Below, in pieces: positions 3,001 through 57,809 of a stretch of 64,000 bases of DNA. Numbering within the stretch: position 1 is the stretch's first letter; every line of letters starts with the position of its first letter. Origin of the DNA: an uncultured bacterium (GTDB lineage Bacteria; Omnitrophota; Omnitrophia; Omnitrophales; Aquincolibacteriaceae); contig CAYZYT010000004.1 of the NCBI GenBank assembly GCA_964482725.1, positions 23,824 to 87,823 of the forward strand, in the 5' to 3' direction. The notes beneath the pieces were generated by a model that saw only the letters and a program-made list of their open reading frames with translations, was not told the origin of the DNA and made no database searches. The position numbers were made by a program, and so were the translations under genes.

Positions 3001-6000
3001 CCCCGAAAGTGCGTTGGTATTCCCTAATGTAATCGCTTGATCAGCGACGGTGGTGGCGAAGTTAGACGTGCCACCCACGGTTAAGGCCGTTCCGACGGCT
3101 TGCGTGATCGCGCCGCCGGCGGTTAAATTCAAAATGCCGGTAATGCTGGTTGTTCCCATCTCTAAAGCATTGACATCTACCAGGGTTGCATTGGTTCCGT
3201 TGACAATGCTGACCGCGCCGGTGAAATTATTCGTGGCGGTATTCAGCACGATGCTATTTGCCGCGCCGGGCGTAAGCGTCGTGGTCCCGCTAACAAGAAG
3301 CGCTCCTTCATCGGTGATATTACCGCTGGAAGTCACGACCAAATCGCCGGAGATGGCTGAATCGCCATTGGCATTGCCCAAGATAATGGCATTCGTATCA
3401 TTTAAGGTGACATCGTGGCCGCTTACAACGCGCACACCGCCGGTAAAGTTATTGGCAGCATCAAGCACGATGTTGTTGCCTGAGCCCGCGGTTAAATCCG
3501 TGGTCCCGCCGACAGTCACTGCGCCTGAGTCGCTGATCCCGCCCGCATTTGCCGTAGCGGAAAGATTCCCGCCAATTCCGGTCGCGTTGAAATCAATATC
3601 CGAGGTGTTGACGATGGTGGCATGACCTGTCGCGCCCGTCGTGCTTAATGCAATCTTCCCTGCAACCGCGAGAGTATCTAAATTGATATCCGCATTTGAA
3701 GCCGAAGTGGTGAAGGAAGCATCCCCGCCTACGGTTACGGTGCCGGTGTCGGAAATGGTGCCGTTCGCATCATCGGTTGTTACTGTAAGATCATGGCCGA
3801 TGCCGGACGTGGCAAGGATTGTTCCTCTTGCGCTGGTCGTGTGATTAAAAACAGTCGCATCGCCTGTTCCTCCCGTCGTATTTAATGTAAGATCGCCCAC
3901 AAGGTCGTTGGCCGCATTGGTCATGATGATGTCAGCGCCACTGCCCGCAGAGAAGGTCGTAGAACCTGAGGCTGTGCTGCACGTCACTTTTGAACCTAAA
4001 TTTAAATCGCCCGCTGTGGTGGCCACGGTCCCGGCCACGTTAATGACGCTGGGAGCTGCTGCAATGACACCATTCCCAAAAGTCGTGACGTCACCGGATT
4101 CATTTCCAAGGGTCACCGTGCCGCCATTCAAAAAGGTTGTCGTTCCGGCTATCGAATTCGTTGTGCCAGTAATGGATACGTTGTACCCATTGGCGGTTGT
4201 GGTCAATGCCGTGGTGACTGTCAAATTTCCCGCAAACGATACCGTCGTTCCATCCGCAGTGTCCGTGATCAGGAGGTTCTTCGCATCCACCGAACTGCCA
4301 AAAGACGTTCCGCCTGATTGCGTGATCGTCAACTGATCAAGCGCGTTCCCCGAGGCACCCACAGCGCCGCCGACACTGACTGCTCCGGTGGTATTGATGA
4401 TCAAGGTTTCAGAACCAGCCGCCGCATCACCGAGCACCGAAGACAGGTTGATCGCGTTATTAATTCCGGTACCGACGGTGAGTTGCTTGGTGTTGTTGAG
4501 AGTGACCGCGCCAAGAGTGATAGCACCGGTAGAAGCTCCGCCGATTGCGACAACATCTGTGACTGTGACACCCGTGGAACCGAGGTTGATAACGCCGCTT
4601 GTTGCCGTAATCGTCCCAGCGATATTCTTCAAACCCGAAGTGGCTACCACGCCAGCCGCGAAGGTGTTTGAATCGCCAACCGCGTCGCCGATCGTCGTCG
4701 TGCCACTGTTCAAAAACGTCGTCGTCCCGGCAATCGAATTGGTCCCCCCGGTGAGGGATACATTATAACCACGGGCTGTTGTGATCAACCCCGTGTTGAT
4801 GATGGTATCCCCCGCAAAGAGAATCGTTCCACCATTTGATGTGTCTGAAATGGTTACTGTGTTGGCTTTAACAAGCCCAGAAAATGTAACGCCTAAAGTG
4901 CTACGTGTGATGGTAACATCCCCGGCTGTCGTTGTTCCAATGTCGCCTGTAGTTACGAGACCGCCGGCCTCTGTGATAGTCAAACCGCCGGTAAGATCGA
5001 CCATGGTGCCCATGTTGATCGCGATACTACTCGCTGCAGTTGACCCTATATTAAGTTTGTTGCCGCCGCTTGTAACATTTCCGATGGTCAAAAGGCCCGT
5101 GGCCGCGCCTGCGCCTGGAACAGCATTAATAGTAGCAACGCCCGATAAAGACACGCTATCAAAGGCCAATCCCTGAACACCCGAAGTTGTAAGGGCGCTC
5201 CCTATCCCTAGGGTTAGCGTATTACCACCCCCGATATTCAAAATGCCGAGACCCTGAGTCACGCCCGCGCCTCCGCTCAACCTGTCGGAATTAATTCTGG
5301 CATCGCCAGTCATCGTTACATCGCGACCAAAATCGAGGCCCGTATCATTGGCAAGACTCAAAATACCGCCTGACATCGAGACGGAGGCGGCACCCGTGCC
5401 CAAGGCCTGATTGCTGGTCGTCGCTTTAAGCGTGCCGGCAGAAATGGAAGTAACACCTGTGTAGGTATTAACGCCCGAAAGAGTTTGGGTGCTGGCGCCA
5501 TCTTTGTATAATCCGCCGGTCCCTGAAATTACGCCTGCAAAATTCGTGGTTCCCGTTGTCGCCCCGATTGTCAAAGTTTTCGCGTTGAGATTGACAAGAG
5601 AAGTTGTCGCGCCGGTAAGAGAAGCTATCGCTTGGTCTTCCCCAAGCGCCAACTTAGAACCCCCCGCACCCGAATCATCTATCGTTACGGCGCTGCGTGT
5701 CGCTGCGGGCATTGCCCCTGCCACATTCGCGTTCAAAATTCCAAGGCCTGCTCCCGAGGTGCTACGAATCGTCGTCGGTCCCACATAAGAATTTGCGACA
5801 TCGAGATTGACCGTCACACCATCCACCACAAGGTCGGAATTGGCGGAAGCTCCGCTGATACCTATCGTGTTCACCGTGATCGCGTTTGTTCCGGTTAACG
5901 TTAGTGTGGTTCCGTTTTTGATCAAGCCGCCTGAAAGCGTCAGTGTGCCAGTGCCGGTGTTGCTGATCGTGCCGTTGCCAGCTCCGATAGTCACGGCCTT

Positions 6001-9000
6001 AGCCAGTGTGCCCGTCGCCCCTGTGTATTGCAACGTCCCTCCACCAATGCTTAGGGCCGTATTTTCTCCCAGCGACTGGGCAGCGGTGGCGCTCGCATTA
6101 ACCGTGTTGATGCTTAATATCCCCCCCGCGATCGAAGTTAACCCGGTGTAAGTGTTCAAGCCGGAGCCAGCGAGCGTCACTGTATCCGCCGTTGTTTTAT
6201 TAAGACCCACCGCCCCCGCCAAAACGGATTCAACCAAACCTCTCCGCATGTCATAGGTTGTAGCGCTGGCCAGGGCTGAAGTACCCGACCCGGTAATCCT
6301 GCCTCCATTCAGCAAAGTGATCGAGGCAACGGTGTCGCTGTGATCAACGCCAAGGGCAAAGATAGCGTTCTCGCCGTTCACCGTGAGCGCACTTAAATCA
6401 GAAATCGATCCGGTGGCGCCTTCAGCCAGCGTCCCGTTCGTAACAAGTGTCGCGCCGGTATAAGTATTGGCGCCGGAGAGCGTCCAAGTGCCTGCATCGT
6501 TCTTGGTCAGTGTGCCGGAACCCGTGGTGATCGTCCCGCTGATCAAGCCATTGCCCGCACCTTCAAGCGTAAGATTCTTGTTCGTCGCAGTGATTGCATT
6601 GGCCGCATTGAGTGTGAGCGTGTCCGCATCCGACTGGATCGTTGAATTGTCTACCAGAGTCACCGTACCACCCCAGGTGTTGGAGCCGCTGATATTACGA
6701 AGAGCTCCGTTAGAGCTCACACCACTGCCCGAGAGGCTCAACGTCTCAGCGCCCACCGTGATACCGTTCTGCAATTCAAGAGCAGCGCCACTGGTCACCG
6801 TCACGCCACCGGCTGTGGTCCCCGTGCCCTGCGCGTTCTGGATATTCAACACGCCCGCGTTCACGGCAGTCGCGCCGGTATAGGTGTTCTCACCAGAAAG
6901 TGTCACTGTATCAGTCGTCGTCTTGGTCAAGCCAACGCTACCCCCGAGGATAGCCGAAGCAGAACCGTTCCGCACATCATAGGTGGCACCACTGGTCAAA
7001 GCCGATGTGCCGGTCCCCGTAATGCTTCCGCCGCTTAGGATCACCGATCCCACCGTGTTGGTGTGATCCGCCCCGAGAGCCAACGTGCCGCCAATGGTCA
7101 AGGGTCTTGTGTTGCCGATCTGGTTGCTCTGAAGCAACCTTACCTCGGCTCCGGAGCTTATTGAAAAAGTATTTACAGAACCGGGAATAGCTTCCGCCAA
7201 GGTGGTGTTTAATTCCAAGACACCTCCCTGGACATAAATGGAAGGGGTAAAAGTATTCGCACCGGTCAGGGTGAGCGTTCCTGAGTCCAGCTTGGTGAGA
7301 AGCCCGCCTCCTCCCGAAATGATGCCTGAAAGCGTCAGATCGCTCGTACCTGAAACCGTCAATCGATTCCCCTGAGTGTTTATATCATTACTTACGGAAC
7401 GCGTACCGCTCGCTTGGAGAGTGCCGTCACTGGCGCCAACAGTGAGCGTGCCTATCCCTAGCGCACTATTATTACCAAGAACAAGCGTGCCTCCCGAAAG
7501 CGAGGTCCCCCCGGTATAAGTGTTTGCGCCGGAGAGCGTCACGGTATCCGCCGTCGTCTTGGCCAAACCATTGCCCCCCCCGAGGATAGCCGAAGCAGAA
7601 CCGTTCCGCATATCGAAGGCCGCTGTGCTGGTTAACGTGCCGCCGGTTCCCGTGATGCTGCCGCTGGTCAGAGCGACAGATGCAACCGTGTCGCTGTAAT
7701 TTCCTATCGCCAGAGTTCCACCCGCTACCGTCAATGCCGCCCCATCTGCCAATCTATCCGCCGCCCCCAATGTCAAAGTTCCACCGTTGATATGGACTGT
7801 CCCGGCATCCGACGAGCCGTTCAATGCCGTGCTGCCGCTGGTCTGTGTCAGCGTGCCTGCGCCCAAGTCGGCGTCGATCGTGCCACCTGTGAACCCATAA
7901 GTCGTTGCGGTTAGTTCCCCTGCGCCGCTGATCGTACCGCCGCTGACGAGACTCGCAACGGTTTCCGCAGCGCCCACGCTCAACGTCGCGCCACTTGCTA
8001 CCGTCACTGCGGATGTGTCCGCAATCGCCGTACCCCCTGAAAGTGACAGCGTTCCCGCGCTCACCGCTGTCGTGCCGGTGTAGGTGTTGGTGTTGGTTAA
8101 AGCGAGAGTGCCTGCGCCAGATTTTGTAAGACCTGCGGTGTTACTACTATCGATAATCCCGCCGAGTGTCACAATCTGGCTGTTGGTATCTAATTTGATG
8201 GCGGCCGCCGTGCTGTTCTTGATGCGTATCGCATAATCCGTTCCCGCACTGGCGGCACTGTACTGCAGTGTCCCTCCGGAAAATGTAATATCTCCTCCGT
8301 TGCCTAACGCACCGGAGCCAGCCGCATCGCCAACGCCGGCATTCAGGGTTCCGGCGCTGAGCGTGGTCGCGCCGGTATAAGTATTGGCGCCGGAGAGCGT
8401 CCAAGTGCCTGAGTCGTTCTTGGTCAGTGTGCCGGCACCCGTGGTGATCGTCCCGCTGATCAAGCCATTGCCCGCACCTTCAAGCGTAAGATTCTTGTTC
8501 GTCGCAGTGATTGCATTGGCCGCATTGAGTGTGAGCGTGTCCGCATCCGACTGGATCGTTGAATTGTCTACCAGAGTCACCGTACCACCCCAGGTGTTGG
8601 AGCCGCTGATATTACGAAGAGCTCCGTTAGAGCTCACACCACTGCCCGAGAGGCTCAACGTCTCAGCGCCCACCGTGATACCGTTCTGCAATTCAAGAGC
8701 AGCGCCGCTGGCCACCGTCACTCCACCGGCTGTGGTCCCCGTACCCTGGCTATTCCGAATATTCAACACGCCCGCGTCCACGGCAGTCGCGCCGGTATAA
8801 GTATTGGTGCCAGAGAGCGTCCAAGTGCCTGCATCGTTCTTGGTCAGTGTGCCGGAACCCGTGGTGATCGTCCCGCTGATCAAGCCATTGCCCGCACCTT
8901 CAAGCGTAAGATTCTTGTTCGTCGCAGTGATTGCATTGGCCGCATTGAGTGTGAGCGTGTCCGCATCCGACTGGATCGTTGAATTGTCTACCAGAGTCAC

Positions 9001-11025
9001 CGTACCACCCCAGGTGTTGGAGCCGCTGATATTACGAAGAGCTCCGTTAGAGCTCACACCACTGCCCGAGAGGCTCAACGTCTCAGCGCCCACCGTGATA
9101 CCGTTCTGCAATTCAAGAGCAGCGCCGCTGGCCACCGTCACTCCACCGGCTGTGGTCCCCGTACCCTGGCTATTCCGAATATTCAACACGCCCGCGTCCA
9201 CGGCAGTCGCGCCGGTATAGGTGTTGGCGCCGGAGAGCGTCACTGTATCAGTCGTCGTCTTGGTCAAGCCAACGCTACCCCCGAGGATAGCCGAAGCAGA
9301 ACCGTTCCGCACATCATAGGTGGCACCACTGGTCAAAGCCGATGTGCCGGTCCCCGTAATGCTTCCGCCGCTTAGGATCACTGATCCCACCGTGTCGGTG
9401 CGATTCGCCCCGAGAGCCAAGGTGCCGCCAGCAACTGTCAATGCGGCCGCATCGTCTAAACGATTATTGGCACCAAGCGCAAGAGTACCGCTGTTGATGT
9501 TCACGGTCGTCCCGGCTTCTGTCCCGTTCAGTGTCGTTGTCCCACTTGTAACTGTCACTGTGCCCGCGCCAAGATTCGCGTCCACCGTACCCGCTTGAAG
9601 AGCATACGTCGCGGCCGTCAACGTTTGGCCCGCGCCACCCAACGTACCGCCGGTCTGTGTATATCCAGCTACACCTTCAGCGCCCGCCAGGGTTAATGTC
9701 CCACCCGCCACGGTCAAGGTCGAAGCAGCATTCAACCGCCCCGCAGAACCAAGACCGACTGTTCCGTTGGAAGTAACCGCACCATCGCCAAGCATTGCAT
9801 TCACTGTCCCGCCGGTCAGGCCGTACGTCGTGGCCGTGAGAGTCCCCGTTGGCGCATTCAGCGAACCTCCGCTCATGTTAAATACGCCGACCGTGTCAGT
9901 ATTCGCTCCGTTCATATCTAAAATACCTGTCCCAGAAACCGTAACCGTCGCCGAATTATCCAAACGATTACTTGAGCCAAGCGTTAACGTCCCGGCGCTG
10001 ATCCCCACTGTCGTAGCGCCCGAAGCCCCGTTTAATGCCGTCGAGCCGGTCACATTCATCGTCCCGGTACCGAGATTGGCCGTCACCGTGCCACCGCTTA
10101 ATCCATAAGTCCCGGCTGTGATTGTGCCCGTGCCGTTGAGAGAACCACTGCTCATATTGAATGTCCCTACAGTATCGGTCAATCCTGCGCCGGTATCTAA
10201 AATGCCTCCAGCAACGGTAACTGTGGATGTATCAATGATCTGGTTTGATTGAACCAGCTCTGCTGTGCCACCGTTGACTGTCAGATTGCCAGCTATCGAA
10301 TTATTACCCGTGGTATTTAAATCCAGTTCGCCCGCCGTCACCGTCGTAAGGCCGGTATAAATATTTGCGCCCGAGAGAACCCAAGTGCCGTTGCCGCTTT
10401 TTGTCACGGCTCGCGTGCCACCGTCTGCTCCATTGCTAATAATGCCGCTGACGGTGTTATTGCCCGTGTCTGTGCCGGTCAGGATAAGTGTCTTTGCGCC
10501 ATTGCCTACACCTGTTATATCTCCAGTGATATTCAATAGAAATTCATCATTAGCACCGTTATTCGTAACGGTGTAATTTCCCGTGTAGGACTGTTTGATA
10601 TCGGCTGCAATAGTTTGTGTCTGCACGACACCGTTATTCACCGTGATCGAACCACCGGCTGTGTTTACCAGGATCTCTTGGGATCCAGCGCCACCCGTAC
10701 CGATCGTATAACTCGCGGCACTAGCCGTATCGAAAATTATTCCTAAAACTGCTGCCCCGCTAACATTGATCCCGGCGACTCCTGCGCCGGCCGCCCCACT
10801 AAATGTCGCAGTATTTGTAGCAAGCGGAAACGCTTTGCCGCCCCAGTTCGCATCAAGATTCCACACATCAGACGTCGTACCCGTCCATGTAGCATCTGCC
10901 GCAAACGCGGGGGTCACGGGTGAAAAGACGAGGGAAAGGGCGGCAACGATGGCAAGGAGCTTTTTCGCCGGCCCTTTTTTCTGGGGCGAGGGATGATTCC
11001 CGAAAAGTTTTTTAAGAGTGATCAT
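1..11025 (-). CDS. Giant secreted repeat protein built from autotransporter-associated beta-strand (PATR-type) repeats; N-terminus at 11025, C-terminus beyond the window start (partial, at least 3670 codons)
   Basis: Manual minus-strand translation starts with ATG at 11025..11023, preceded by AAGGAG 9 nt upstream. The N-terminus is MITLKKLFGNHPSPQKKGPAKKLLAIVAALSLVFSPVTPAFA followed by ADATWTG, a signal peptide with an AFA-AD cleavage site. Many units of the form G-T-W-T-L-S-G-x-N-T-Y-T-G-x-T-x-V-x-A-G-x-L-x-L follow. Spot translations at 8384-8450 and 1-170 are in the same frame and still show PATR-like units. It is absent from the ORF track because it has no in-window stop; the long P/V/A-rich plus-strand ORFs there are antisense artefacts. 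Confidence 0.8.
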   Translation of the reverse strand, partial: MITLKKLFGNHPSPQKKGPAKKLLAIVAALSLVFSPVTPAFAADATWTGTTSDVWNLDANWGGKAFPLATNTATFSGAAGAGVAGINVSGAAVLGIIFDTASAASYTIGTGGAGSQEILVNTAGGSITVNNGVVQTQTIAADIKQSYTGNYTVTNNGANDEFLLNITGDITGVGNGAKTLILTGTDTGNNTVSGIISNGADGGTRAVTKSGNGTWVLSGANIYTGLTTVTAGELDLNTTGNNSIAGNLTVNGGTAELVQSNQIIDTSTVTVAGGILDTGAGLTDTVGTFNMSSGSLNGTGTITAGTYGLSGGTVTANLGTGTMNVTGSTALNGASGATTVGISAGTLTLGSSNRLDNSATVTVSGTGILDMNGANTDTVGVFNMSGGSLNAPTGTLTATTYGLTGGTVNAMLGDGAVTSNGTVGLGSAGRLNAASTLTVAGGTLTLAGAEGVAGYTQTGGTLGGAGQTLTAATYALQAGTVDANLGAGTVTVTSGTTTLNGTEAGTTVNINSGTLALGANNRLDDAAALTVAGGTLALGANRTDTVGSVILSGGSITGTGTSALTSGATYDVRNGSASAILGGSVGLTKTTTDTVTLSGANTYTGATAVDAGVLNIRNSQGTGTTAGGVTVASGAALELQNGITVGAETLSLSGSGVSSNGALRNISGSNTWGGTVTLVDNSTIQSDADTLTLNAANAITATNKNLTLEGAGNGLISGTITTGSGTLTKNDAGTWTLSGTNTYTGATAVDAGVLNIRNSQGTGTTAGGVTVASGAALELQNGITVGAETLSLSGSGVSSNGALRNISGSNTWGGTVTLVDNSTIQSDADTLTLNAANAITATNKNLTLEGAGNGLISGTITTGAGTLTKNDSGTWTLSGANTYTGATTLSAGTLNAGVGDAAGSGALGNGGDITFSGGTLQYSAASAGTDYAIRIKNSTAAAIKLDTNSQIVTLGGIIDSSNTAGLTKSGAGTLALTNTNTYTGTTAVSAGTLSLSGGTAIADTSAVTVASGATLSVGAAETVASLVSGGTISGAGELTATTYGFTGGTIDADLGAGTLTQTSGSTALNGSSDAGTVHINGGTLTLGAADRLADGAALTVAGGTLAIGNYSDTVASVALTSGSITGTGGTLTSTAAFDMRNGSASAILGGGNGLAKTTADTVTLSGANTYTGGTSLSGGTLVLGNNSALGIGTLTVGASDGTLQASGTRSVSNDINTQGNRLTVSGTSDLTLSGIISGGGGLLTKLDSGTLTLTGANTFTPSIYVQGGVLELNTTLAEAIPGSVNTFSISSGAEVRLLQSNQIGNTRPLTIGGTLALGADHTNTVGSVILSGGSITGTGTSALTSGATYDVRNGSASAILGGSVGLTKTTTDTVTLSGENTYTGATAVNAGVLNIQNAQGTGTTAGGVTVTSGAALELQNGITVGAETLSLSGSGVSSNGALRNISGSNTWGGTVTLVDNSTIQSDADTLTLNAANAITATNKNLTLEGAGNGLISGTITTGSGTLTKNDAGTWTLSGANTYTGATLVTNGTLAEGATGSISDLSALTVNGENAIFALGVDHSDTVASITLLNGGRITGSGTSALASATTYDMRRGLVESVLAGAVGLNKTTADTVTLAGSGLNTYTGLTSIAGGILSINTVNASATAAQSLGENTALSIGGGTLQYTGATGTLAKAVTIGAGNGTISNTGTGTLTLSGGLIKNGTTLTLTGTNAITVNTIGISGASANSDLVVDGVTVNLDVANSYVGPTTIRSTSGAGLGILNANVAGAMPAATRSAVTIDDSGAGGSKLALGEDQAIASLTGATTSLVNLNAKTLTIGATTGTTNFAGVISGTGGLYKDGASTQTLSGVNTYTGVTSISAGTLKATTSNQALGTGAASVSMSGGILSLANDTGLDFGRDVTMTGDARINSDRLSGGAGVTQGLGILNIGGGNTLTLGIGSALTTSGVQGLAFDSVSLSGVATINAVPGAGAATGLLTIGNVTSGGNKLNIGSTAASSIAINMGTMVDLTGGLTITEAGGLVTTGDIGTTTAGDVTITRSTLGVTFSGLVKANTVTISDTSNGGTILFAGDTIINTGLITTARGYNVSLTGGTNSIAGTTTFLNSGTTTIGDAVGDSNTFAAGVVATSGLKNIAGTITATSGVINLGSTGVTVTDVVAIGGASTGAITLGAVTLNNTKQLTVGTGINNAINLSSVLGDAAAGSETLIINTTGAVSVGGAVGASGNALDQLTITQSGGTSFGSSVDAKNLLITDTADGTTVSFAGNLTVTTALTTTANGYNVSITGTTNSIAGTTTFLNGGTVTLGNESGDVTTFGNGVIAAAPSVINVAGTVATTAGDLNLGSKVTCSTASGSTTFSAGSGADIIMTNAANDLVGDLTLNTTGGTGDATVFNHTTSARGTILATSGIGHDLTVTTDDANGTISDTGTVTVGGDASFTTSASNADINLDTLAVAGKIALSTTGATGHATIVNTSDIDFNATGIGGNLSATANAGGISDSGAVTVGGTTDLTAGSGNNIVLDAANNFTGGVRVVSGHDVTLNDTNAIILGNANGDSAISGDLVVTSSGNITDEGALLVSGTTTLTPGAANSIVLNTATNNFTGAVSIVNGTNATLVDVNALEMGTTSITGILNLTAGGAITQAVGTALTVGGTSNFATTVADQAITLGNTNALSGAVSFTTSGASGDVLLDNGITALDLGASTIGGDLSAHTGNNITDSGIVSVAGNASFATVASNGAIDLNLLRVDGAITLDTHGSGNATIVNDDDVQLTSNTGIGGNANITATTNGITDNGTFTVTGDAAFISLGDNADINLDQLNVTGSVTLTTTSTGAHTADAAVDNGTTALKLGLSTVEGSLTARSGEAITQTGALTVAGTSSFTTDVANKAITLDNTSNALAGAITLSTSGTTGDATVVNNVNTTLATSTLGGDLDVNSRNNSLTVAGALSTAVANGSLTLNAGSGTLTTNGSLASGSATTTLTGATININEDVTTVGALVDVSATTAVTLDSGHSITTTAAAGATGTTSGAIDIDVTGGGGTVALAGNLNTTGAANAAGTGWTGGAVTINTNNGAMAVNNITTTGGAGTGFNGGAAGIITLVSGGQAITLNGNLSAIGGASNTGTGGAGATVTLSDPATLGTAVTINTSGGVGTVANGAGGNIDFTSTVNGANTLNLVAGLGNVNVGGIVGTSAGHANNLTGFTVTSAATADLNNVFTAGAQDINATNIHLNGTTYTSTGVGVLSFTGATTLAANSTITSDAGALDDIIFDGTGTINGAFTLDLVAGAGDVNVGGIVGTSAGHANNLTSFTVTSAATADLNNVFTSGAQDINATNIHLNGTTYTSSGHSLRFNGVVNTAAAPTTVTSGGLLGDDITFTGAVTLGDDLTLVSGAGTITLAAVNNGGKLLTVNNDDALSGITGIVSGAGGITKAGTGTTTLSGANTYTGATSVTGGILQLGAAGALGNGTLNTSGVTVSSGAALDLNGIALTANAVPLNLNGTTSTGTVGALTNSNNTAATYGGAVTLQSASSIGSSNGDITLSGGVNGAFGLTKVGTDKLTLTSDTNASTTTTITAGTLQIGNGGAGGALGSGLVSNSGNLTINQNDAFTIGAGNAISGTGSFTQAGTGTTTLSGANTYTGATSVTGGILQLGAAGALGNGTLNTSGVTVSSGAALDLN

Positions 11026-11745: not shown

Positions 11746-12024
11746 AAAAACAACGGTGGCGGGGAAGAAAACAGGATCCGCCCTGTTTCAAAAATTTTTC
11801 GCTCCCTTGGATTTAATCGCCCGTGGTACAGATGATTAAGCAAGATAGAGCTTTATAGTATTCGCTAGGCCAAAAAAATACTTACTAAACCACCCTCATT
11901 TGCTTTTTTCCTATTCGCCAGATATACTTCCTTCAGAGATAAAGAAAGTGGAACGCGCTATTACGACCGAAGTCTTTGGAAAACGCACTGCAGCTCGATC
12001 GCTCTTTTTGAAAGGGGTTTGGGT

Positions 12025-12477
12025 ATGCGAACAGAAACCTTGGGCTTTAAAATGAAAGCACCTATGGAAAAAGTCACCCCTGTAAAAAAAAATCCTTCCA
12101 AGCAAAAAAGAATCCTCATCATCGAAGACGAATATAGCGCCAGCAAGTTCCTGACCATGCGGTTAAAAAACCTCGGCTTCACGGTTTCCGCCGCTTTCGA
12201 CGGCATGACCGGCCTTAAAGAAGCGACCGAAACGATCCCCGACCTTATTATTCTCGACCTGATGATCCCCAAACTTCCCGGCGAAGAGGTCTGCAAAACA
12301 CTCCGCGAAAGTTTCGATGAAAGGCTTGTGAAGATCCCCATCATCATGCTGACCGGCAAGGATTCGATGGTCGACAAGATCCTTGGCAAGGTCATCGGGG
12401 CCGATGCTTATTTGACAAAACCTTATGAATTTAGCGATCTTTTAGAGGTGATCAAAAAAATTCTTCCAGATGCCTAG
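12025..12477 (+). CDS. Stand-alone response regulator receiver (CheY-like REC domain only)
   Basis: REC motifs are present: ILIIEDE, DLIILDLMIP, IIMLTGKD and the conserved Lys in YLTKPY. ATG at 12025 has AAAGGGG 10 nt upstream. The ORF track start at 12019 is a TTG. Confidence 0.85.
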   Translation: MRTETLGFKMKAPMEKVTPVKKNPSKQKRILIIEDEYSASKFLTMRLKNLGFTVSAAFDGMTGLKEATETIPDLIILDLMIPKLPGEEVCKTLRESFDERLVKIPIIMLTGKDSMVDKILGKVIGADAYLTKPYEFSDLLEVIKKILPDA

Positions 12478-12535
12478 GTTTTGAAAACAAGGAAATCCCG
12501 GGAAAAGATCCCGGCTCGGAAAAGAGGTCGTGGAG

Positions 12536-14227
12536 ATGGACCAGGAAAAGTTCTCACAGCCCGGGTTGAAGATCCTCCTCGTCGAAGATGATCAGGAATT
12601 CGCGGATATCCTCAGGATCCGCCTCAGCAAAGAAACGAATCCCCCGCTCGAGATCACCTGTGCCCCAACCCTGCAGCAAGCCCTTGAAGCCCTGAATGAA
12701 ACGACTTGGGACCTCGTCCTGCTGGATCTGATGCTTCCGGATTCCTCGGGCATCCAGACCTTTACCACATTCCATGCCCAGGCCCGGCACACCCCGATCG
12801 TGATCATGAGCGGCCTGGATAGCGATAGCCTTGCGATCGATGCGGTCCGCAAAGGAGCCGAAGATTATCTGGTCAAGGGCGAGCTTAATTCCAGGCTCTT
12901 GCTCCGCATTCTGCATCACGCCATTGACCGCCACCGGATCAAGGAAAAGCTCGCTTCCGTCACGGGTCGCCTGAGAGACACGAATTTGAAGCTCGAGAAG
13001 ATGGCACTTTTGGATCCCCTGACGTCGCTTTACAACCGTCGAGGACTCCAGCAGGCCTTCCGGCGCGAAACCCAGATCCTTGCGCGCGAAGGCGGGAACC
13101 TCATGGTCTTGATCCTGGATATCGATGATTTCAAGAAGATAAATGATTCTCTGGGCCATCCGGTCGGAGATATCCTCCTTAAAGAAACCGCTAAAAAGAT
13201 CCAGGATTCTGTGCGTGCCTCAGACCACGTGGCAAGAGTCGGCGGCGATGAATTTATCTTGTTGCTCCCCAGGACCCAGCTCGCGGAAGGCCTCCGCCTC
13301 GCGGAACGGCTTCGTTTCGCGGTATCGAGCACCACGATCACCGTTTCGGAAAAAGAAACCCTCAGGATCACTGCGAGTTTCGGGTTGGCGCCTGTGCCGA
13401 GTCATGTGACCTCGGTCGATGATCTCCTGTCCATCTCCGACCCTTTTTTGAGACAAAGCAAGAACGAAGGAAAGAACCGGATCTCCTTCCCGCAGGCGGA
13501 AGGTCAGGGACACGAGATCGAAATGTCGGATTCGCAGCACATGACGGAACTCATGCGCGGCGGCAACGATTTCTTTGCCTTGAAACAACCGATCCTGCGC
13601 CTTGCGGATCAATCCGTAGTCGGCTACGAATTCCTCTCGCGCCTCAAGAACAGCGGGATCCACACCCCCGATGAGTTCTTCCGCGTCGCGCTGGAAAACA
13701 ACATGCTTACCTTGGTGGACCATCATTGTTTTCGCTCCTGTATTTCTGCTTCCGCCGCGCTTCCCCCCAAAATGCACCGGCATATCAACCTTTTCCCGGC
13801 CACGATCATTGATCTTGCGGTCGAAGAGCTTGTCGAAAAACTGGCGCTCAATTGCCCGGCCCAGAGCTATTGTCTGGAGATCAGCGAGCAACAGATCCTC
13901 GGAGAGCCCTCCCACTTGATCGGCCCGATCGAAGAGCTCAAACGTTACGGCATTTCAATCGCCGTTGATGATGTGGGGTTCGGTAATACCTGCCTCGAGA
14001 GCCTTATCCTTCTCGAGCCGGATGTGATCAAGATCGACAAAAAATACGTCATCGGGATCGCCCAAGACCCGCACATGGAGCGTTCGCTCCGCCGCACGCT
14101 CAAGGTCGCGGAGGATTTGAACGCTGAAGTGATCGCCGAAGGCATTGAAACCCAGGAAGACCTCGACAAACTCAAAGAGCTCGGGGTCCGATACGGTCAG
14201 GGTTTCTATCTCGGGATGCCCGCTTAG
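12536..14227 (+). CDS. Response regulator with REC-GGDEF-EAL architecture (c-di-GMP turnover protein)
   Basis: N-terminal REC (KILLVEDD...LLDLMLPD). GGDEF domain with RVGGDEFILLL. EAL domain with EFLSRL, DDVGFGNTCLESL, KIDKKYV and AEGIETQE. ATG at 12536 has AAGAGG 8 nt upstream. Confidence 0.85.
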   Translation: MDQEKFSQPGLKILLVEDDQEFADILRIRLSKETNPPLEITCAPTLQQALEALNETTWDLVLLDLMLPDSSGIQTFTTFHAQARHTPIVIMSGLDSDSLAIDAVRKGAEDYLVKGELNSRLLLRILHHAIDRHRIKEKLASVTGRLRDTNLKLEKMALLDPLTSLYNRRGLQQAFRRETQILAREGGNLMVLILDIDDFKKINDSLGHPVGDILLKETAKKIQDSVRASDHVARVGGDEFILLLPRTQLAEGLRLAERLRFAVSSTTITVSEKETLRITASFGLAPVPSHVTSVDDLLSISDPFLRQSKNEGKNRISFPQAEGQGHEIEMSDSQHMTELMRGGNDFFALKQPILRLADQSVVGYEFLSRLKNSGIHTPDEFFRVALENNMLTLVDHHCFRSCISASAALPPKMHRHINLFPATIIDLAVEELVEKLALNCPAQSYCLEISEQQILGEPSHLIGPIEELKRYGISIAVDDVGFGNTCLESLILLEPDVIKIDKKYVIGIAQDPHMERSLRRTLKVAEDLNAEVIAEGIETQEDLDKLKELGVRYGQGFYLGMPA

Positions 14228-14230
14228 ACC

Positions 14231-16519
14231 ATGCCCCAAAAAGACGCAGCGAGCGCCCAGACCACCCGCGAAAAAACAGCCTCGGTCCTTTATTCGACCC
14301 GGGTAAAGTTCCTGCTTGCTTTCATCCTCCTCGCGAGCTTTACCGTCGGAACCTTCCTCGCCATGCACCAGGAGATCCGTCACACGGAACGCAGCGCGAC
14401 GGTCATCAGCTTCTTGGAAAACCAGTACAACCAGATCCAGAAGGCCACCTTCTTTTCAACCGCTTATGCCCAGTCGATGGACGTGGAGGAACGGAAAACT
14501 CTCCGCATCAACGCCCATGAAGCGCTGGCCTCTTTGCTTGTCTTCGGCACGACTTCCAACGACATTATTTCAAGCAAAACACAACTGCCGCTGGAACTCA
14601 TCCCCACGCTCCGCGAGCTGTATTTTTCTTCTTCGGCCCCTCTGAACCGGGAAGTGGAGGAATATTTTTCCACTTTAAAAAAATTCCTTATGAGCTCTCC
14701 GATCCGGGTTCGCCTGGACAACGCGCAATTGCTGGCGTTTCAGGGGAAAAGCGACCAACTCCTCGACTCGTTACGTTCCACGATTGAGAAATTCCAAAAA
14801 AAAACCGGGGCGAAGATCACCGCCCTTAAAAATCTCGATCTGGGTCTTTTCTGCTTCAACCTGTTGTCCCTCGTTTTGGTCGGCCTGTTGGTTTTCCTGC
14901 CAACGCTTCGCAGTCTCGGCCTTTTCCTCCATCGCCTTGAAAACATGAACGCGGCGCTGGAGGTCAAGGTCTCGGAAAGGACCGCGGAGCTCGAACAAAA
15001 AACGCGGCAACTTATCCTCGGCAACGAAGAGCTTCGCGAGCAGATCGATGAGCGGATCCGGATCGAAAGAGAGCTCCGGCAAGCCAACACCTTCTTAGAC
15101 TCGGTCATCGAGAACATCCCGAACATGCTCTTCATCAAAGACGCCTCCGAATTGCGCTTCGTGCGTTTCAACCGCGCGGGGGAGGACCTTTTGGGATACA
15201 AGCGCGAAGATCTCCTAGGGAAAAATGATTTTTCTTTTTTTGCTAAAAATGAGGCGGATTTTTTTATCGAAAAAGACAGGGAGGCTCTTCGTTCTCAGGT
15301 GATGTTGGAGATCCAGGAAGAGACGATCCACACTCAAAAAAAGGGCGTTCGGATCCTGCACACTAAAAAGATCCCGATCCTGGACTCGCAGGGAAAACCT
15401 TCCTATCTGCTCGGGATCTCGGAAGACATTACGGAAAAGATCCAAACAGAACATCAGCTGCGCGAATTCTCCATGGCCATGGAGAACGCCCTCGACGGCA
15501 TCGCGCGGCTGGATCCCAACAAAAAGTTCTTAAGCGCTAACAGGGCCTACGCCGCCATGATGGGCTATGCCCCGGAGGAACTGGTAGGGCTGAACCGCAT
15601 GTCGACGATCTGCCCGGAGGATTCCGGCAAGGCGCTTGCCGCTTTTGAAAAAATGCTCGTCGAGGGAAAAGCAGAAGCGGAGGTCAAGGCCCTCCGGAAA
15701 GACGGCTCGATCTTCCATCAATATATCGTTCTTGTCAAAAATATGGACAAAGGCCAGAAGTTTGACGGTTTTTACTGTTTTGCAAAAGACGTGACGGAGC
15801 GTAAATATCAGGAATCTCTCGAGATCAAAGCCGATCTGATCCAGATGGTCTCTCATGAGCTCCGCACGCCGATCCATTCGGTCAAAGAAGGTTTGAGCAT
15901 CGTCCTGGAAGGGCTCACGGGGGAGATCACTCCCGAGCAAAAAGAAGTGCTGAATATCTCCAAGCGATGCGTCGACCGGCTGGTGCGCCTTGTCAATGAT
16001 GTGCTCGCCTTCCATAAGCTTGAGGCCGGCGTGATCGAATTTCACATGAAAAAAGAAAACCTGACCCGGATGATTGAGGAGGTGGGCACCTCGATGCGTC
16101 CCTTGGTGGAGAACAAGAACCTCTCGTTAAAGCTGGCGCTCCAAAAGGATCTTCCGGAGATCGAGCTGGATCGCGACAAGATCGTTCAAGTCCTCACGAA
16201 TTTTTTACAGAACGCCATTAAGTTCACGCTTCAGGGCGAGATCACGATCACCTCCTCCTTGAACGCCGACGGAGTGAGGGTCTCGATCAAAGACACGGGG
16301 ATCGGCATTCAGAAAAAAGATGTCCCGAAGCTCTTCCGGAAATTCGGGCAGCTCGAATCCGCGAAACTTGTTGCGCCGGGCGGCACGGGGCTGGGACTTG
16401 CCATCTCCAAGATGCTCGTGGAACGGCACCATGGAAAGATCGAGATAGAATCAGAATACAAAAAAGGCAGCGCCTTTTCCTTCCTGCTCCCGCTGGAACA
16501 ACCCAAGTCCTCCAAATAA
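14231..16519 (+). CDS. Membrane sensor histidine kinase: two TM helices flanking a ~155-aa periplasmic domain, coiled coil, two PAS domains, HisKA and HATPase_c
   Basis: H-box MVSHELRTPIHSV. G-boxes GTGLGLAISKMLVERHHGKIEIESE and DTGIGI. TM segments FLLAFILLASFTVGTFLAM and LFCFNLLSLVLVGLLVFL. The ATG is 3 nt after the stop of the upstream gene, consistent with operon coupling. Confidence 0.85.
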   Translation: MPQKDAASAQTTREKTASVLYSTRVKFLLAFILLASFTVGTFLAMHQEIRHTERSATVISFLENQYNQIQKATFFSTAYAQSMDVEERKTLRINAHEALASLLVFGTTSNDIISSKTQLPLELIPTLRELYFSSSAPLNREVEEYFSTLKKFLMSSPIRVRLDNAQLLAFQGKSDQLLDSLRSTIEKFQKKTGAKITALKNLDLGLFCFNLLSLVLVGLLVFLPTLRSLGLFLHRLENMNAALEVKVSERTAELEQKTRQLILGNEELREQIDERIRIERELRQANTFLDSVIENIPNMLFIKDASELRFVRFNRAGEDLLGYKREDLLGKNDFSFFAKNEADFFIEKDREALRSQVMLEIQEETIHTQKKGVRILHTKKIPILDSQGKPSYLLGISEDITEKIQTEHQLREFSMAMENALDGIARLDPNKKFLSANRAYAAMMGYAPEELVGLNRMSTICPEDSGKALAAFEKMLVEGKAEAEVKALRKDGSIFHQYIVLVKNMDKGQKFDGFYCFAKDVTERKYQESLEIKADLIQMVSHELRTPIHSVKEGLSIVLEGLTGEITPEQKEVLNISKRCVDRLVRLVNDVLAFHKLEAGVIEFHMKKENLTRMIEEVGTSMRPLVENKNLSLKLALQKDLPEIELDRDKIVQVLTNFLQNAIKFTLQGEITITSSLNADGVRVSIKDTGIGIQKKDVPKLFRKFGQLESAKLVAPGGTGLGLAISKMLVERHHGKIEIESEYKKGSAFSFLLPLEQPKSSK

Positions 16520-16676: not shown

Positions 16677-18330
16677 CTAATCTTCGTGACGGATCCCCTG
16701 AACGCCCGCGGCATTCAAAAGGAGCGTAACGGCAGGACTTGATTTTTGGGAACCCACTTGTCCGACGCGAAGAAGGATCTTGGCCTCACCCTTCGCGGGG
16801 ATCCATGCGGGTTGAATATCAAAAAAAGTTTCTTTGGTTTCAATTTGCGCGCACTTTTCTTTTCGCCCGTCGCTCATCACTTCCAAGCGATAGACCGTCC
16901 CCTCTTTGGGGGCAACGCCCTGCTCAACCGCCAAATCCTTGAAGGATAATTTCCCTCCGGAGAATGAAAATCCATCCAGCGGATTGACGCGAGAAAACCA
17001 GTAACGAACGATCCTGTCACGCCGCTCGATCAGGGTCTTGGCAATAGTCTCTGCGTCTTTGGCGTCGCTATATTGCCCAGCCTTGACCACCGCCCGGATA
17101 TCCTCATCCGAAAAGCTCAGCAGAATTTTCGCGGCCCAAAATCCATCGGCACGGGTCACGAGCCGGAACGATTCATAGGGAAATTGCGCTTTATAGCGCG
17201 CCGGGTCAAAAAGTTCGTTGTTAAAATAACCCACGGCCGGAGACGCCTGGATCTTTTCACCCGCCAGACGCCATTTTTTCTGCCAGGGTTTCTCCCAAAA
17301 CCCTAAGGCCAGGATCGCTTTGGAGGTCTCTCCATAATCGACCACGTATTCATAACCCAACATCGGCACCTTCGGACCTTCCTGCGTCGCGCCCAGGGCT
17401 CCGTTAAAATCAGCCAGGTAATGCTTCATCACGACCTGACCGTTCTCCTCGACCGACATTTCCAAGGTGTCGCTTTCCCGGAGATCATAATGGTTCAACC
17501 AGGAGGCGAAGATCCCCAGCGCCCTGAGCTCCCGGCGATCGCGATGGTTCACCAGGTCCGCGGGATCATCCTTCCGTCGGGATTCGAAACTGAAGATCCC
17601 GTGATAGTTCCCTTTCATGATCTTGCACGCCGAAGCCCGGTAAAGACCCGTCTCGTTCTGAGGAAGAACCATCAGGTACTCTTCAAATCGTTTTTGGCTG
17701 AGCTCCTTTTTAAAGCCCGTGTCCTCCCAAGTCGTTGCGGCCGGAGCCACCTGGAACTGATCGGGTTTGATCGAAAGGATCGTGAACTGCGGCACCTCAT
17801 AACCCAAGGCGTAGTAAAACCGGCTGGCAATAACCTCCGCCCCTGTCACCAGTTCCATGTTCCCCTGAGGATCGAATTCCAAAAGATATTCGTCTCCCCG
17901 CGCGTCCTTGACCCAGAACCGGGGATAGATCCCCCGCTGTTCCGCCGCCATAACCTGCAAGGGTTGGCTCATGTCAGGCCCTGCGGTTTCCTGATATCCT
18001 TTTTCAAGAGCTTCCGGGGAGCGTTTCTCGCGGCCCTGCCGATTCACAAAAAATCCGGAATCCGGCACTTCATCAAAAATGTTCACGTTTTTCGAAGGAA
18101 GCTCTTTTCCGGAAAGCTTCCTTCCCCAACGCCCGAGATCGAGTTGGTTGACGCCTTCGCTATAAACATTCTGGTCAAAAAGGTCGCTGTAAAACGAGGA
18201 TTCGCTTTCTTTAAATTTTACTGTCTCGCCGGCCAGAGACATCCCCGCAAATCCGAGCATCCCCGCCCCGAAGACCCAAAGCGCCAGTGTCTGACGCGCT
18301 TGCTTTGTTTTTTTAAGTCGAGTGTTCATG
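16677..18330 (-). CDS. Secreted hypothetical protein with a signal peptide and kinase-like catalytic signatures (FWVK, NHYD, DFNG)
   Basis: ATG at 18330 has AAAGG 8 nt upstream; the track start at 18338 is a GTG. The signal peptide is TLALWVFGAGMLGFAGMSLAGE. The spacing NHYDLRESD ...(20 aa)... ADFNGALG resembles a kinase catalytic loop followed by a DFG motif. Confidence 0.6.
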
Positions 18331-18340
18331 TCTAGCACCT

Positions 18341-19663
18341 TTAGAACGCGAGCTTGTTCTTAACATAGAACCGCGTACCTTCATTGCCGTGAGCGACCGA
18401 GAAATTCAAAAGCGAGTTCCGGGCATAGCTGATATAAAGACCGACACCGTAAGATTCCCGGAGATCTTTCAGCCGGAATTGGTGGATCTTACCGAAGACC
18501 TCTCCCGTATCCGAGAAAAAGGCTGTTTTCACCTTGAACGCTTTGTATTCCATCACGGTGTAGCGATACTCCAGGTTCAGGAGCAAGGCGCTTTGCCCGT
18601 AGAACCGGTTGTAAACAAAAGCCCGTGCTGTTTCGCTGTCCCGCGTATTCGTCCCGGCACCACCCAGTTTTGCCATTTCATAAAAAGGGAGGTTTCCGTC
18701 TATCGTCTCGTTATGTTCGGCAAAGATGCGTGCCACAAAAATGCGGCGGGGGGACGCGAGCCGGAAATATTTCGCCATGTCGATCTGGTACTTTAAAAAA
18801 CGCGCCGGGGAGCCGTTGACGCCGTCGGTGAACCGAAAAAGCAGTTTTTGATAACTCCCTTTCGTGGCCTCATCTTTGCTGTCACGCGTATCGCGTCCCA
18901 GCGTCAGGGAATAGTTCAAGAGATCGTCCCCGCCGATGCCCGGGATATTCTGCCCGGCGAAAATGCCCCGGATATCCCCTTTGCCATCATGGGTCCGGTT
19001 TAAAATATTCACTTTTTTGTAATCAAATCCCGCTTCAAGATCGATCGTGGGAGAGAATTCATAACCGGCCCGCGCGCCCACTTGGGTGGTTTCCATCCTG
19101 TAGGACGTGCCGTTGCCCCTGCTGGTGTGCGGCCCGATACCATAAAAAGGTTCTTTTTGCTGGAGATCATAGTTAAAAATCCCTTTGGTGTGAAACCCGG
19201 TCCCGCCGATCCTCTGCGCTCCGATCTCGGAACCCACCTCAAAAAACACGCTCGGACAATACAAAAGGGTGGTGGTGGCAAAAAAATCGGGGTATTTTTC
19301 TTTCTGCTTCGCCAGGGCTAAAAGATTCAGCTCAGCGCCAAAGAAAGGGAGCGCGCTTAAGTCCGTGAATCCGAAGAGCGGCTTGATCCCTTGTTTGAGC
19401 GATTCTTCGTAAAGCCATATTGTTTTCTTATCAAGCCGGTGGTTTTCGCTAAAAATGATCCCCTGGTCCATGGGCCACTTGATCAGTTTAAAAGGAAGCT
19501 CGATGACCCGTGAAAAAGCGCCTTTAAGGGGTTGGGCGGAAAGAGGCTGGGTGTAAACGGGCGCGTAAAGATCGGCTTTTTTCTCCTCGCCATATCCGAG
19601 AAGAGCGAAGGCGAACAGCCCAAGGCAAAGGAAGCTAAAAATTTTTCTGGCTTTTAGGATCAT
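18341..19663 (-). CDS. Outer-membrane beta-barrel protein, Omp85/BamA-like barrel without obvious POTRA domains (440 aa)
   Basis: Signal peptide MILKARKIFSFLCLGLFAFALLGYG. Alternating amphipathic beta-strand pattern. C-terminus ...YVKNKLAF ends in Phe, as is typical for outer-membrane proteins. The motif KLGGAGTNTR resembles the Omp85 LGG..RG motif. It lies 10 bp upstream of the 16677-18330 gene on the same strand. Confidence 0.5.
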   Translation of the reverse strand: MILKARKIFSFLCLGLFAFALLGYGEEKKADLYAPVYTQPLSAQPLKGAFSRVIELPFKLIKWPMDQGIIFSENHRLDKKTIWLYEESLKQGIKPLFGFTDLSALPFFGAELNLLALAKQKEKYPDFFATTTLLYCPSVFFEVGSEIGAQRIGGTGFHTKGIFNYDLQQKEPFYGIGPHTSRGNGTSYRMETTQVGARAGYEFSPTIDLEAGFDYKKVNILNRTHDGKGDIRGIFAGQNIPGIGGDDLLNYSLTLGRDTRDSKDEATKGSYQKLLFRFTDGVNGSPARFLKYQIDMAKYFRLASPRRIFVARIFAEHNETIDGNLPFYEMAKLGGAGTNTRDSETARAFVYNRFYGQSALLLNLEYRYTVMEYKAFKVKTAFFSDTGEVFGKIHQFRLKDLRESYGVGLYISYARNSLLNFSVAHGNEGTRFYVKNKLAF

Positions 19664-47174: not shown

Positions 47175-47184
47175 GTTTCTTCGT

Positions 47185-49641: not shown

Positions 49642-49677
49642 GATGACAAAAACTCCTTGGTTTTTTAAAATAGTTTT

Positions 49678-50973: not shown

Positions 50974-51152
50974 GCGGAATTCCCTTCGTTTGAAAGGCTT
51001 TTATCGGCTTTGCGAGGAATTTCTTTTTCTAAGGATAAGAACCGTATACAAAAGCGATAAAGTTTGGAAATTATAGCACGGGCGCTAGGCCCTCTGTAAA
51101 GGCTCTTTTCTCGCTCTTTTGTCCGTTATGATAGAAGACGCCTCGCCCAAGA

Positions 51153-52097: not shown

Positions 52098-52133
52098 GTT
52101 CGTAACTCCTTATTTATAAACAAGTTGTGTGTT

Positions 52134-53027: not shown

Positions 53028-53039
53028 ACACCCTCCAGA

Positions 53040-53055
53040 TGTTTCACGTGAAACG
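53040..53055. promoter_or_regulatory. parS site TGTTTCACGTGAAACG (15 of 16 matches to consensus, 14-bp perfect palindrome), 13 bp upstream of the parA start
   Basis: Direct read. The parS consensus TGTTNCACGTGAAACA is established knowledge. Confidence 0.75.
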
Positions 53056-55499: not shown

Positions 55500-55505
55500 A
55501 AAAAC

Positions 55506-57213: not shown

Positions 57214-57222
57214 AGTGTTTCC

Positions 57223-57806: not shown

Positions 57807-57809
57807 CGC

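Follow-up and report, generated by a model that had tools for sequence, protein, structure and literature searches.

A 64,000-nucleotide stretch of DNA (the window) from an uncultured bacterium of the Omnitrophota family Aquincolibacteriaceae (contig CAYZYT010000004.1) carries two adjacent minus-strand genes encoding an outer-membrane barrel of the Omp85 family and an exported protein with a predicted kinase fold. Comparison of related loci showed that these two proteins form a dedicated pair that is obligatory across phyla. The pair was further shown to be frequently linked genetically to transporters of the TLC/NTT family, and loss of the NTT neighbour to be linked with loss of catalytic residues in the kinase-fold protein. 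While both folds are known, their obligate pairing and the wider module are undescribed. The explanation we favour, although we hold it with slightly less than even confidence, is that the pair constitutes a dedicated cell-envelope module that was ancestrally fed with ATP and in the window has probably become uncoupled from it. This ATP-fed ancestral module would lie in relatives, not in the window.

Conservation and architecture of the gene pair

A profile search of 1.84 billion representatives (E<=1e-3) assigned 3,312 clusters at 50% identity to the kinase-fold family, which is common in soil and sediment metagenomes beyond the Omnitrophota. An Omp85 homologue was located directly upstream and on the same strand in every informative locus, and this pairing was observed in Omnitrophota, Zixibacteria, Krumholzibacteria, KSB1, Latescibacterota and soil metagenomes at 25-40% identity. 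It was present in all GTDB loci with enough upstream DNA, including those of Zixibacteria and Krumholzibacteria, in eight of eight distant contigs (at L090, one of the eight, a same-sized gene with no Pfam match on record lies upstream) as well as in all 56 metagenome loci from a different subfamily that had 1.5 kb or more of upstream sequence. Two close loci retained the Omp85 pairing in a differing outer context and, between phyla, the genes around the pair change completely while the adjacency stays. A first-pass annotation of the window had called two neighbouring genes on one strand and suggested that their co-occurrence in other genomes be checked; both open reading frames (ORFs) are present on the minus strand, and the synteny held without exception in the informative loci. 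Because each protein has hundreds of homologues (35-100% identity) and no informative related locus breaks the adjacency, both ORFs are regarded as real genes rather than chance.

The Omp85 gene occupies 18341-19663 (440 aa according to the ORF listing and the sequence) and is co-directional with the ORF of the kinase-fold gene (16677-18338). The likely start of the latter is an ATG at 18329, resulting in a gene of 16677-18329 and a protein of 550 aa, while an alternative GTG start at 18338 would give 553 aa. The ATG is preferred because an AGGTG ribosome-binding site precedes it and because 550 aa matches the length of database protein P0001 (550 aa), which is 100% identical to the window protein. 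Thus the pair described in the first-pass annotation stands, while its figures of 551 aa and 10 bp are replaced by 550 aa and an 11-nucleotide spacer. The junction between the Omp85 stop and the kinase-fold start reads TAA-aggtgctagac-ATG, and this spacer with its ribosome-binding site is consistent with operon-style coupling. Scans around the pair returned three promoter-like sites versus 1.7 expected, which is uninformative, and no terminator on the gene strand. Residues of the kinase-fold protein are given in the 553-aa GTG numbering; subtracting 3 converts them to the 550-aa numbering. The following features, all on the minus strand, were assigned to the pair:

18341..19663, minus strand: gene for the 440-aa POTRA-less ('noNterm') Omp85-family outer-membrane barrel (ORF, Pfam, AlphaFold2, Foldseek)
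19589..19663, minus strand: predicted Sec signal peptide of the Omp85 protein, aa 1 to about 25, MILKARKIFSFLCLGLFAFALLGYG (sequence; helix 2-22 in the model)
19394..19519, minus strand: two conserved, predicted periplasmic alpha-helices in place of POTRA, aa 49-90 (helices 49-74 and 77-90 in the model)
18359..19387, minus strand: predicted 16-stranded beta-barrel, aa 93-435, of a protein that ends in C-terminal Phe440 (strands in the model, Foldseek)
18617..18670, minus strand: loop-6 region with KLGGAGTNTR (aa 332-341) and ARAF (aa 346-349) (family alignment)
18330..18340, minus strand: 11-nucleotide intergenic spacer with the AGGTG ribosome-binding site (sequence read)
16677..18329, minus strand: gene for the 550-aa, Sec-exported kinase-fold protein (ORF; P0001; AlphaFold2 with a predicted local distance difference test score, pLDDT, of 83 and a predicted template modelling score, pTM, of 0.84; Foldseek)
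18231..18329, minus strand: predicted signal peptide of the kinase-fold protein, MNTRLKKTKQARQTLALWVFGAGMLGFAGMSLA (sequence; family-wide N-terminal signal)
18039..18089, minus strand: most conserved N-terminal motif, NVNIFDEVPDSGFFVNR, with the family consensus NVNxxDEVPDSSWFTNR (family alignments)
16989..17960, minus strand: kinase-like bilobal core, aa 127 to about 450 (secondary structure of the model, residue conservation)
16680..16979, minus strand: C-terminal Ig/FN3-like beta-sandwich, aa 454-553 (all-beta in the model, Foldseek)

The signal peptides that the first-pass annotation had assigned to both proteins were retained as predictions, since a basic stretch followed by a hydrophobic one can be read at each N-terminus.

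The suspected Omp85-like identity of the first protein was borne out by Pfam family PF01103 (aa 164-424, E 1.6e-19, 71 bits versus a cut-off of 24) and by a Foldseek search of the PDB in which the TamA structure 4c00 ranked first (E 1.3e-12), followed by BamA barrels, with template modelling scores (TM-scores) of up to 0.76 on the target. The AlphaFold2 model (pLDDT 79, built on 43 homologues) has the order signal peptide, two helices and 16 strands. About 65 residues separate signal peptide and barrel; this segment forms the two helices, is without a Pfam domain, and shows conservation of P57, P64 and K80 in alignment A4. That POTRA repeats are missing, as had been noted from the sequence, agrees with the model, in which only the helices of aa 49-90 precede the 16-strand barrel, as well as with a Pfam scan that returned no POTRA at E<=1, no ShlB and no other match, and with the Foldseek matches, none of which aligns to a POTRA arm. 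The loop-6 consensus of the family is '...AKLGGxGxxPRxSxTxRGYxxNRF' with R347 and R353 invariant; ARAF of the window aligns with the RGY motif, making R-A-F a conservative variant. Together with the C-terminal aromatic residue (Phe440), this motif places the protein in the Omp85 superfamily. Within the superfamily it has neither the five POTRA domains nor the equivalog-level score of BamA (NCBIfam TIGR03303, 54.7 bits versus a cut-off of 297), and neither the three POTRA domains nor the TamB/DUF490 partner of TamA, its conserved partner being the kinase-fold protein. As a barrel without a recognisable N-terminal periplasmic domain it belongs with the noNterm Omp85 class, while NCBI annotates its homologues as 'BamA/TamA family outer membrane protein'.

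For the second protein, AlphaFold2 predicted a bilobal kinase fold (pLDDT 83) with the element order beta1-3, alphaC, beta4-5, helical lobe and all-beta domain, as the first-pass annotation had anticipated when it proposed structure prediction for an exported kinase-like protein. The top 15 Foldseek matches in the PDB were all kinases, including Fam20C, CtkA, HipT, Rio2, Fam20A and PINK1, with E-values of 5e-4 to 4e-3 and Fam20C in first place (E 4.7e-4); PI4KII-alpha and SidJ were also among the kinase matches. A protein-kinase-like (PKL) fold is therefore supported by the model and its structural matches, and on the same basis the predicted fold is nearest to the HipA/CtkA and Fam20 branches rather than to PI3K. 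The likeness to PI3K/PI4K that had been emphasised initially turned out to be weak, PI4KII-alpha ranking 34th (E 0.013, TM-score 0.17-0.19) and PF00454 giving no Pfam match. A fold search of the viral database BFVD gave the same picture of weak kinase and FN3 matches, and the C-terminal domain matched tissue factor, FN3 monobodies and a cytokine receptor locally in Foldseek. Pfam and NCBIfam scans assigned no family to the kinase-fold protein, and sequence and profile searches against the PDB returned no kinase but only AbxO and an IgA receptor at chance level. HipA_2 (PF20613) weakly matched the N-lobe of the homologues P0113 and P0056; among the HipA-like profiles (PF07804, PF20613) the best match was that of P0113, confined to the N-lobe, with 26.8 bits versus a cut-off of 27, and three of 60 diverse family members matched at E<0.01. 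The same profiles gave no match to the window protein itself, nor did hhalign align the family profile with E. coli HipA.

Residue conservation was counted over 147 aligned family representatives, all of which carry an N-terminal hydrophobic signal or signal peptide and about a third a lipobox Cys. In the N-terminal motif N86, D89, E90, V91, F96, F97, N99 and R100 are invariant in alignment A1, R100 being present in 139/147 representatives.

Catalytic residues and transporter neighbours

The kinase-like core of the window protein comprises beta3 EYLLEF (with E154 at the Lys position), E168 of alphaC, the catalytic loop D285-L-R-E-S-D290, and D310-F-N. In the family alignment the corresponding positions are occupied as follows:

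Position 154, beta3: Lys in 129/147
Position 168, alphaC: Glu or Asp in 131/147
Position 285, catalytic loop: Asp in 130/147
Position 290, catalytic loop: Asn in 132/147
Position 310, DFG-like motif: Asp in 139/147
Positions 154, 285, 290 and 310: full K-D-N-D set in 117/147

The window protein thus has E154 for the beta3 Lys and D290 for the Mg-binding Asn, a rare combination, while E168, D285, R287 and D310-F are retained. Where a kinase would pair the beta3 Lys with the alphaC Glu it has E154 and E168, and of the D-x-x-x-x-N and DFG-type Asp arrangement D285 and D310-F can be recognised in its sequence, with the Asn replaced by Asp290. All strings quoted in the first-pass annotation were located (KLGGAGTNTR at 332-341 and the C-terminal Phe of the barrel, FWVKDARGDEYLLEF at aa 141-155, NHYDLRESD at 282-290 and YLADFNGALG at 307-316 of the kinase-fold protein). 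Its reading of the last two as catalytic loop and DFG-like motif fits the family alignment, in which they coincide with D-x-(R/K)-x-x-N and the DFG-like motif. In contrast, its assignment of the beta3 lysine to K144 (in VKD) had to be given up, as the family beta3 Lys aligns with E154. Position 144 sits in beta2 and varies freely across the family (K/R/E/Q/V). A swapped K144/E154 salt bridge was considered and rejected for this variability and because residues 144 and 154 do not lie next to each other in the beta2-beta3 ladder.

Many related loci carry a gene for a TLC/NTT-family transporter of 420-1,236 aa that scores 46-90 bits on Pfam TLC (cut-off 21). It is situated either upstream (NTT, DUF5329, Omp85 and kinase-fold gene following one another) or immediately downstream of the pair, and a TLC-like gene was detected in 35/86 loci searched. 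Among loci of the first set with enough flank, an NTT neighbour was present in 26/35 with the canonical K154/N290 site and in 0/22 with an altered site. An independent metagenome set gave 15/21 for canonical-site loci with enough flank and 11/17 when the site was disregarded, and NTT was also found in 5/8 distant contigs. Overall, an NTT gene adjoins the pair in about 70% of the canonical-site members whose flanks are long enough. Some of these neighbours bear C-terminal HEAT repeats and a cyclic-nucleotide (cNMP)-binding gene or domain. Next to the NTT-HEAT genes that adjoin the pair (L090 7809-11683 on the minus strand, L088 7538-10749 and L091 8464-12174) there is a gene for a cytoplasmic Pkinase in L090 and a cNMP-binding gene or domain in L088 and L091, which suggests that the transporter is regulated.

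Two further gene families recur near the pair. A DUF5329 (PF17263) gene was found in 23 loci (L019-L021, L026-L028, L032, L033 and others), encoding a small exported protein or lipoprotein between the NTT and Omp85 genes or nearby (about 3100-3600 in locus coordinates); a literature search found no paper mentioning DUF5329. In distant lineages, genes for exported Metallophos (calcineurin-like) phosphoesterases, several with a lipobox, lie directly beside the pair (L083 4063-5004, L085 6724-7977, L090 3585-4685 and the six metagenome loci L107, L114, L115, L117, L156 and L171); they could be a phosphatase counterpart. At locus L085, one kinase-fold and one Metallophos gene are surrounded by three Omp85-family genes (3660-4988, 8036-9385 and 11615 to the end), all in a stretch of 8 kb.

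ATP/ADP translocases within the Omnitrophota have been reported only for Omnitrophia (20/36 genomes) and Aquiviventia (11/31) by Seymour et al. (PMC10066038), whose supplement records variable presence within the Aquincolibacteriaceae, and a widespread, uncharacterised NTT-HEAT(-cNBD) clade was described by Major et al. 2017 (PMC5381601). No description linking NTT transporters to the Omp85 and kinase-fold pair was found in the literature searched, these two papers included, and a search on Omp85/kinase-like pairing, DUF5329 and periplasmic ATP found no description of the module.

The four-gene NTT/DUF5329/Omp85/kinase-fold arrangement is incomplete in the window, whose 64 kb contain neither a TLC nor a DUF5329 homologue. 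In a neighbour-joining tree the window falls into a monophyletic clade without NTT whose sister group, L019-L021, has both extra genes. These sister loci share the outer synteny of the window (RNase HII and UPF0102 upstream, PAS-HisKA and RR-GGDEF-EAL, the latter with a response regulator (RR) domain, beyond) and retain NTT, DUF5329, K154 and N290, while in the window a gap of 85 nucleotides only separates UPF0102 from Omp85. The canonical site with an NTT neighbour is spread across the whole tree. We infer that the window clade is derived, with the NTT and DUF5329 genes lost, the beta3 Lys changed to Glu and the Mg-binding Asn to Asp. The homologues point to Candidatus Omnitrophota as the source, and the closest named genome (83% identity) is RIFOXYB12_FULL_50_7, assigned to Omnitrophia; Omnitrophales; Aquincolibacteriaceae, genus XYB12-FULL-50-7 (PMC10066038 supplement). 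At least five other altered-site lineages are likewise without an NTT neighbour, and some of these are second copies in genomes that also hold a canonical copy with NTT. Two Omp85/kinase-fold pairs occur in some genomes (L036 and L047 on one contig, L057 and L061, L069 and L075, L045 and L052); in two of these the canonical copy has an NTT neighbour and the degenerate copy (e.g. Y-K-F-G, K-R-S-D) has none, a pattern that looks like paralogue subfunctionalisation.

A plus-strand cluster at 12019-16519 of the window is convergent with the pair and codes for a response regulator, an RR-GGDEF-EAL protein as well as a kinase of the PAS-HisKA-HATPase type. Relatives (P0063 context, L019-L021) also have these signalling genes beside the pair, with identities of 53-57%, and within this family the synteny is kept more widely than the NTT genes. 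A giant minus-strand ORF of at least 3,675 aa (1-11025, continuing past the window start) with a signal peptide, 12 PATR (passenger-associated transport) and 5 DUF5649 repeats fits the 'very large ORFs' reported for Aquincolibacteriaceae (PMC10066038 supplement). It was considered as cargo of the barrel and rejected, as it is not conserved beside the pair in relatives. A carbohydrate cluster on the minus strand (45084-50973) comprises genes for an exported protein of the glucoamylase-like/DUF3131 type, a GH94 phosphorylase and a solute-binding lipoprotein. The region of about 51150-63760 resembles a chromosomal origin, with parB, parA, mnmG, yidC and rnpA-like genes on the minus strand and dnaA (58286), dnaN and gyrB on the plus strand, names that were judged from ORF sizes and N-terminal sequences only; the GC skew changes sign near 60 kb, and low-GC stretches lie at 52-54 kb and 58-60 kb.

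A possible ATP-fed envelope module and its alternatives

In the ancestral module that we favour, the NTT would swap cytoplasmic ATP for periplasmic ADP, the barrel-docked kinase would spend this ATP on the phosphorylation, or some other nucleotide modification, of an envelope substrate, and the exported Metallophos phosphoesterase would undo the modification. The barrel probably anchors or cooperates with the kinase-fold protein and is probably not a classical two-partner exporter. The window lineage, near genus XYB12-FULL-50-7, may have lost the NTT and DUF5329 genes first, after which Lys154->Glu and Asn290->Asp became fixed and Asp285, Asp310 and Glu168 were kept. Given these changes, the window protein has most likely ceased to act as a conventional ATP-dependent kinase; it may survive, strongly constrained, as an ATP-uncoupled partner of the barrel with a ligand- or metal-binding or scaffold role.

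Several observations weigh against this explanation. Substrate and direction of the NTT transport are taken from family membership only, the TLC/NTT neighbours score far below the cut-off of NCBIfam TIGR00769, and the NTTs characterised so far are all importers of ATP or nucleotides (PMC5381601; PMC10066038). The association between NTT neighbours and site state (Fisher p = 6e-9) ignores kinship and is thus an uncorrected statistic, and the absence of NTT covers the 64-kb window, so that an NTT gene may lie elsewhere in the genome. For the kinase-fold protein, the fold-search E-values are modest (best 4.7e-4) with TM-scores of 0.26-0.53, sequence-profile searches with the family returned no match at a curated threshold, and the topology is compatible with either the periplasmic face or the cell surface. 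Finally, the window protein keeps D285, D310 and E168, and position 144 is almost always K/R in its clade; therefore non-canonical nucleotide binding is possible.

This last point leads to the possibility that kinase or nucleotide-transferase activity persists in the window protein through a rearranged site, e.g. with a WNK-like lysine at K144 (beta2), Asp290 as a metal ligand and ATP from a transporter encoded elsewhere. D285, D310, F311 and E168 are indeed kept throughout the E154 clade, position 144 is K/R in 18/19 clade members compared to about 68% of canonical-site loci, and the conservation of E154 and D290 inside the clade suggests selection for new residues rather than decay; coverage of the genome by 64 kb only also leaves room for such a transporter. 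We nevertheless consider this unlikely, since all 22 altered-site loci with enough flank, from six or more lineages, are without an NTT neighbour and position 144, being freely variable in canonical members with even Glu included, is no obvious catalytic position. Decidedly unlikely is the minimal two-partner-style secretion proposed in the first-pass annotation, in which an active kinase directed at other cells would be exported by the barrel, either as a released effector or as an enzyme displayed on the surface. The genes are tightly coupled and always adjacent, the secreted kinases Fam20C and H. pylori CtkA are among the nearest structural matches, Omnitrophota have been proposed to be host-dependent (PMC10066038), and in Leptospira candidate surface lipoproteins are encoded directly behind genes of the noNterm Omp85 type (PMC11358297). 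However, the barrel has no POTRA and is not of the ShlB type, the partner has no two-partner-secretion (TPS) domain or beta-helix, TamA and BamA are the closest structures with no two-partner-secretion transporter among the 50 matches listed, and the window protein is without beta3 Lys and Mg-binding Asn. Moreover, many family members are lipoproteins and thus anchored rather than released, the family is common in soil and sediment metagenomes instead of being restricted to Omnitrophota, and the co-encoded inner-membrane NTT would deliver ATP only up to the periplasm, for which reason a periplasmic site of action is argued for. The two-partner-secretion model is therefore not supported.

Alternatively, the genes could form a nucleotide-scavenging route with the barrel as outer-membrane channel, the kinase-fold protein as periplasmic nucleotide binder and the NTT as importer, of which the window would hold a remnant. 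No Omp85 barrel is known to function as a solute channel. Conservation of the catalytic Asp together with the full K/E/D/N/D set exceeds the needs of binding, the exported Metallophos recurrent beside the pair suggests a phosphorylation/dephosphorylation cycle, and the family abounds in metagenomes of soil and sediment, habitats in which external ATP is probably scarce. This route therefore appears very unlikely, even though the kinase fold binds nucleotides, the characterised NTTs are importers as stated above, and the Omnitrophota translocases have been interpreted as ATP-scavenging symbiosis factors and as a means of energy parasitism (PMC10066038). Next to no credence is given to the barrel being a generic BamA/TamA-type assembly paralogue whose adjacency lacks functional meaning. 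Its homologues are named accordingly by NCBI and the TamA and BamA barrels are its nearest solved structures, but this explanation is effectively refuted by the synteny, the adjacency being constant across phyla while the surroundings change, and the missing POTRA and the low TIGR03303 score also speak against it.

Beyond the window, the ATP-fed module could represent a widespread, undescribed ATP-dependent periplasmic/outer-membrane phosphorylation (or nucleotide-dependent modification) system, in which a TLC/NTT or NTT-HEAT(-cNBD) transporter exports ATP to a barrel-docked kinase with Metallophos as eraser and of which the window is a natural uncoupled derivative; we offer this generalisation tentatively and regard it as rather doubtful. 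If true, the Omnitrophota 'ATP/ADP translocases' used as energy-parasitism markers as well as the NTT-HEAT clade would have a different role. The NTT link in itself bears on the old assumption of a periplasm without ATP supply and on the reading of ATP/ADP translocases as parasitism markers in uncultured phyla. In addition, the noNterm Omp85 proteins gain a constant partner, a large family of exported kinase-fold proteins outside Pfam coverage (about 3,300 clusters at 50% identity) is now defined, and the window lineage provides a natural contrast, with no transporter gene nearby and a remodelled active site.

Comparison with known systems

Two-partner secretion systems (TpsB/TpsA, e.g. FhaC/FHA) resemble the window in that the gene of an Omp85-superfamily barrel lies beside that of an exported partner. 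TpsB has two POTRA domains and TpsA an N-terminal TPS domain and a beta-helix, whereas neither window protein has a POTRA, ShlB or Haemagg_act match and the partner is predicted to consist of an alpha/beta kinase fold and a beta-sandwich. With TamA and BamA (PDB 4c00, 4n74, 4n75) the window barrel shares the loop-6 R-G/A-Y/F-type motif and the C-terminal aromatic residue. It differs from them in having no POTRA domains, of which TamA has three and BamA five, and in the absence of a TamB (DUF490) partner and of Bam lipoprotein genes nearby.

Among kinases, the HipA-like proteins (HipA, HipT, CtkA) have a similar bilobal fold, and the catalytic Asp and DFG-like Asp, 23 residues apart in HipA, are separated by 25 residues in the window protein. 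Unlike these, the window family is exported and has no member at the Pfam threshold; its proteins bear the NVNxxDEVPDSSWFTNR motif near the N-terminus and an Ig-like domain at the C-terminus, they do not belong to a toxin-antitoxin pair, and the window protein is without the beta3 Lys. Fam20C, the top Foldseek match, and CotH likewise represent kinase folds outside the cytoplasm, but the window protein has no detectable sequence similarity to them and no CotH Pfam match. No ATP pool is known from the bacterial periplasm, and the NTT co-encoded in relatives is notable for that reason. Several of these NTT neighbours resemble the NTT-HEAT(-cNBD) clade (PMC5381601) in having HEAT repeats followed by a cNMP-binding gene, while NTT genes are absent from the 64-kb window.

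The noNterm Omp85 class defined by Heinz & Lithgow 2014 (PMC4104836) is similar to the window in combining a 16-strand barrel without POTRA with a gene position immediately upstream of an exported-protein or lipoprotein gene. Leptospira interrogans has three such paralogues, with genes for lipoproteins of unknown role behind them (PMC11358297). These partners are Big/integrin or DUF1566 lipoproteins, whereas that of the window is a predicted kinase-fold protein; in further distinction, the barrel of the window type carries a conserved two-helix N-terminal hairpin, and its pairing is conserved over many phyla and linked to NTT in relatives.

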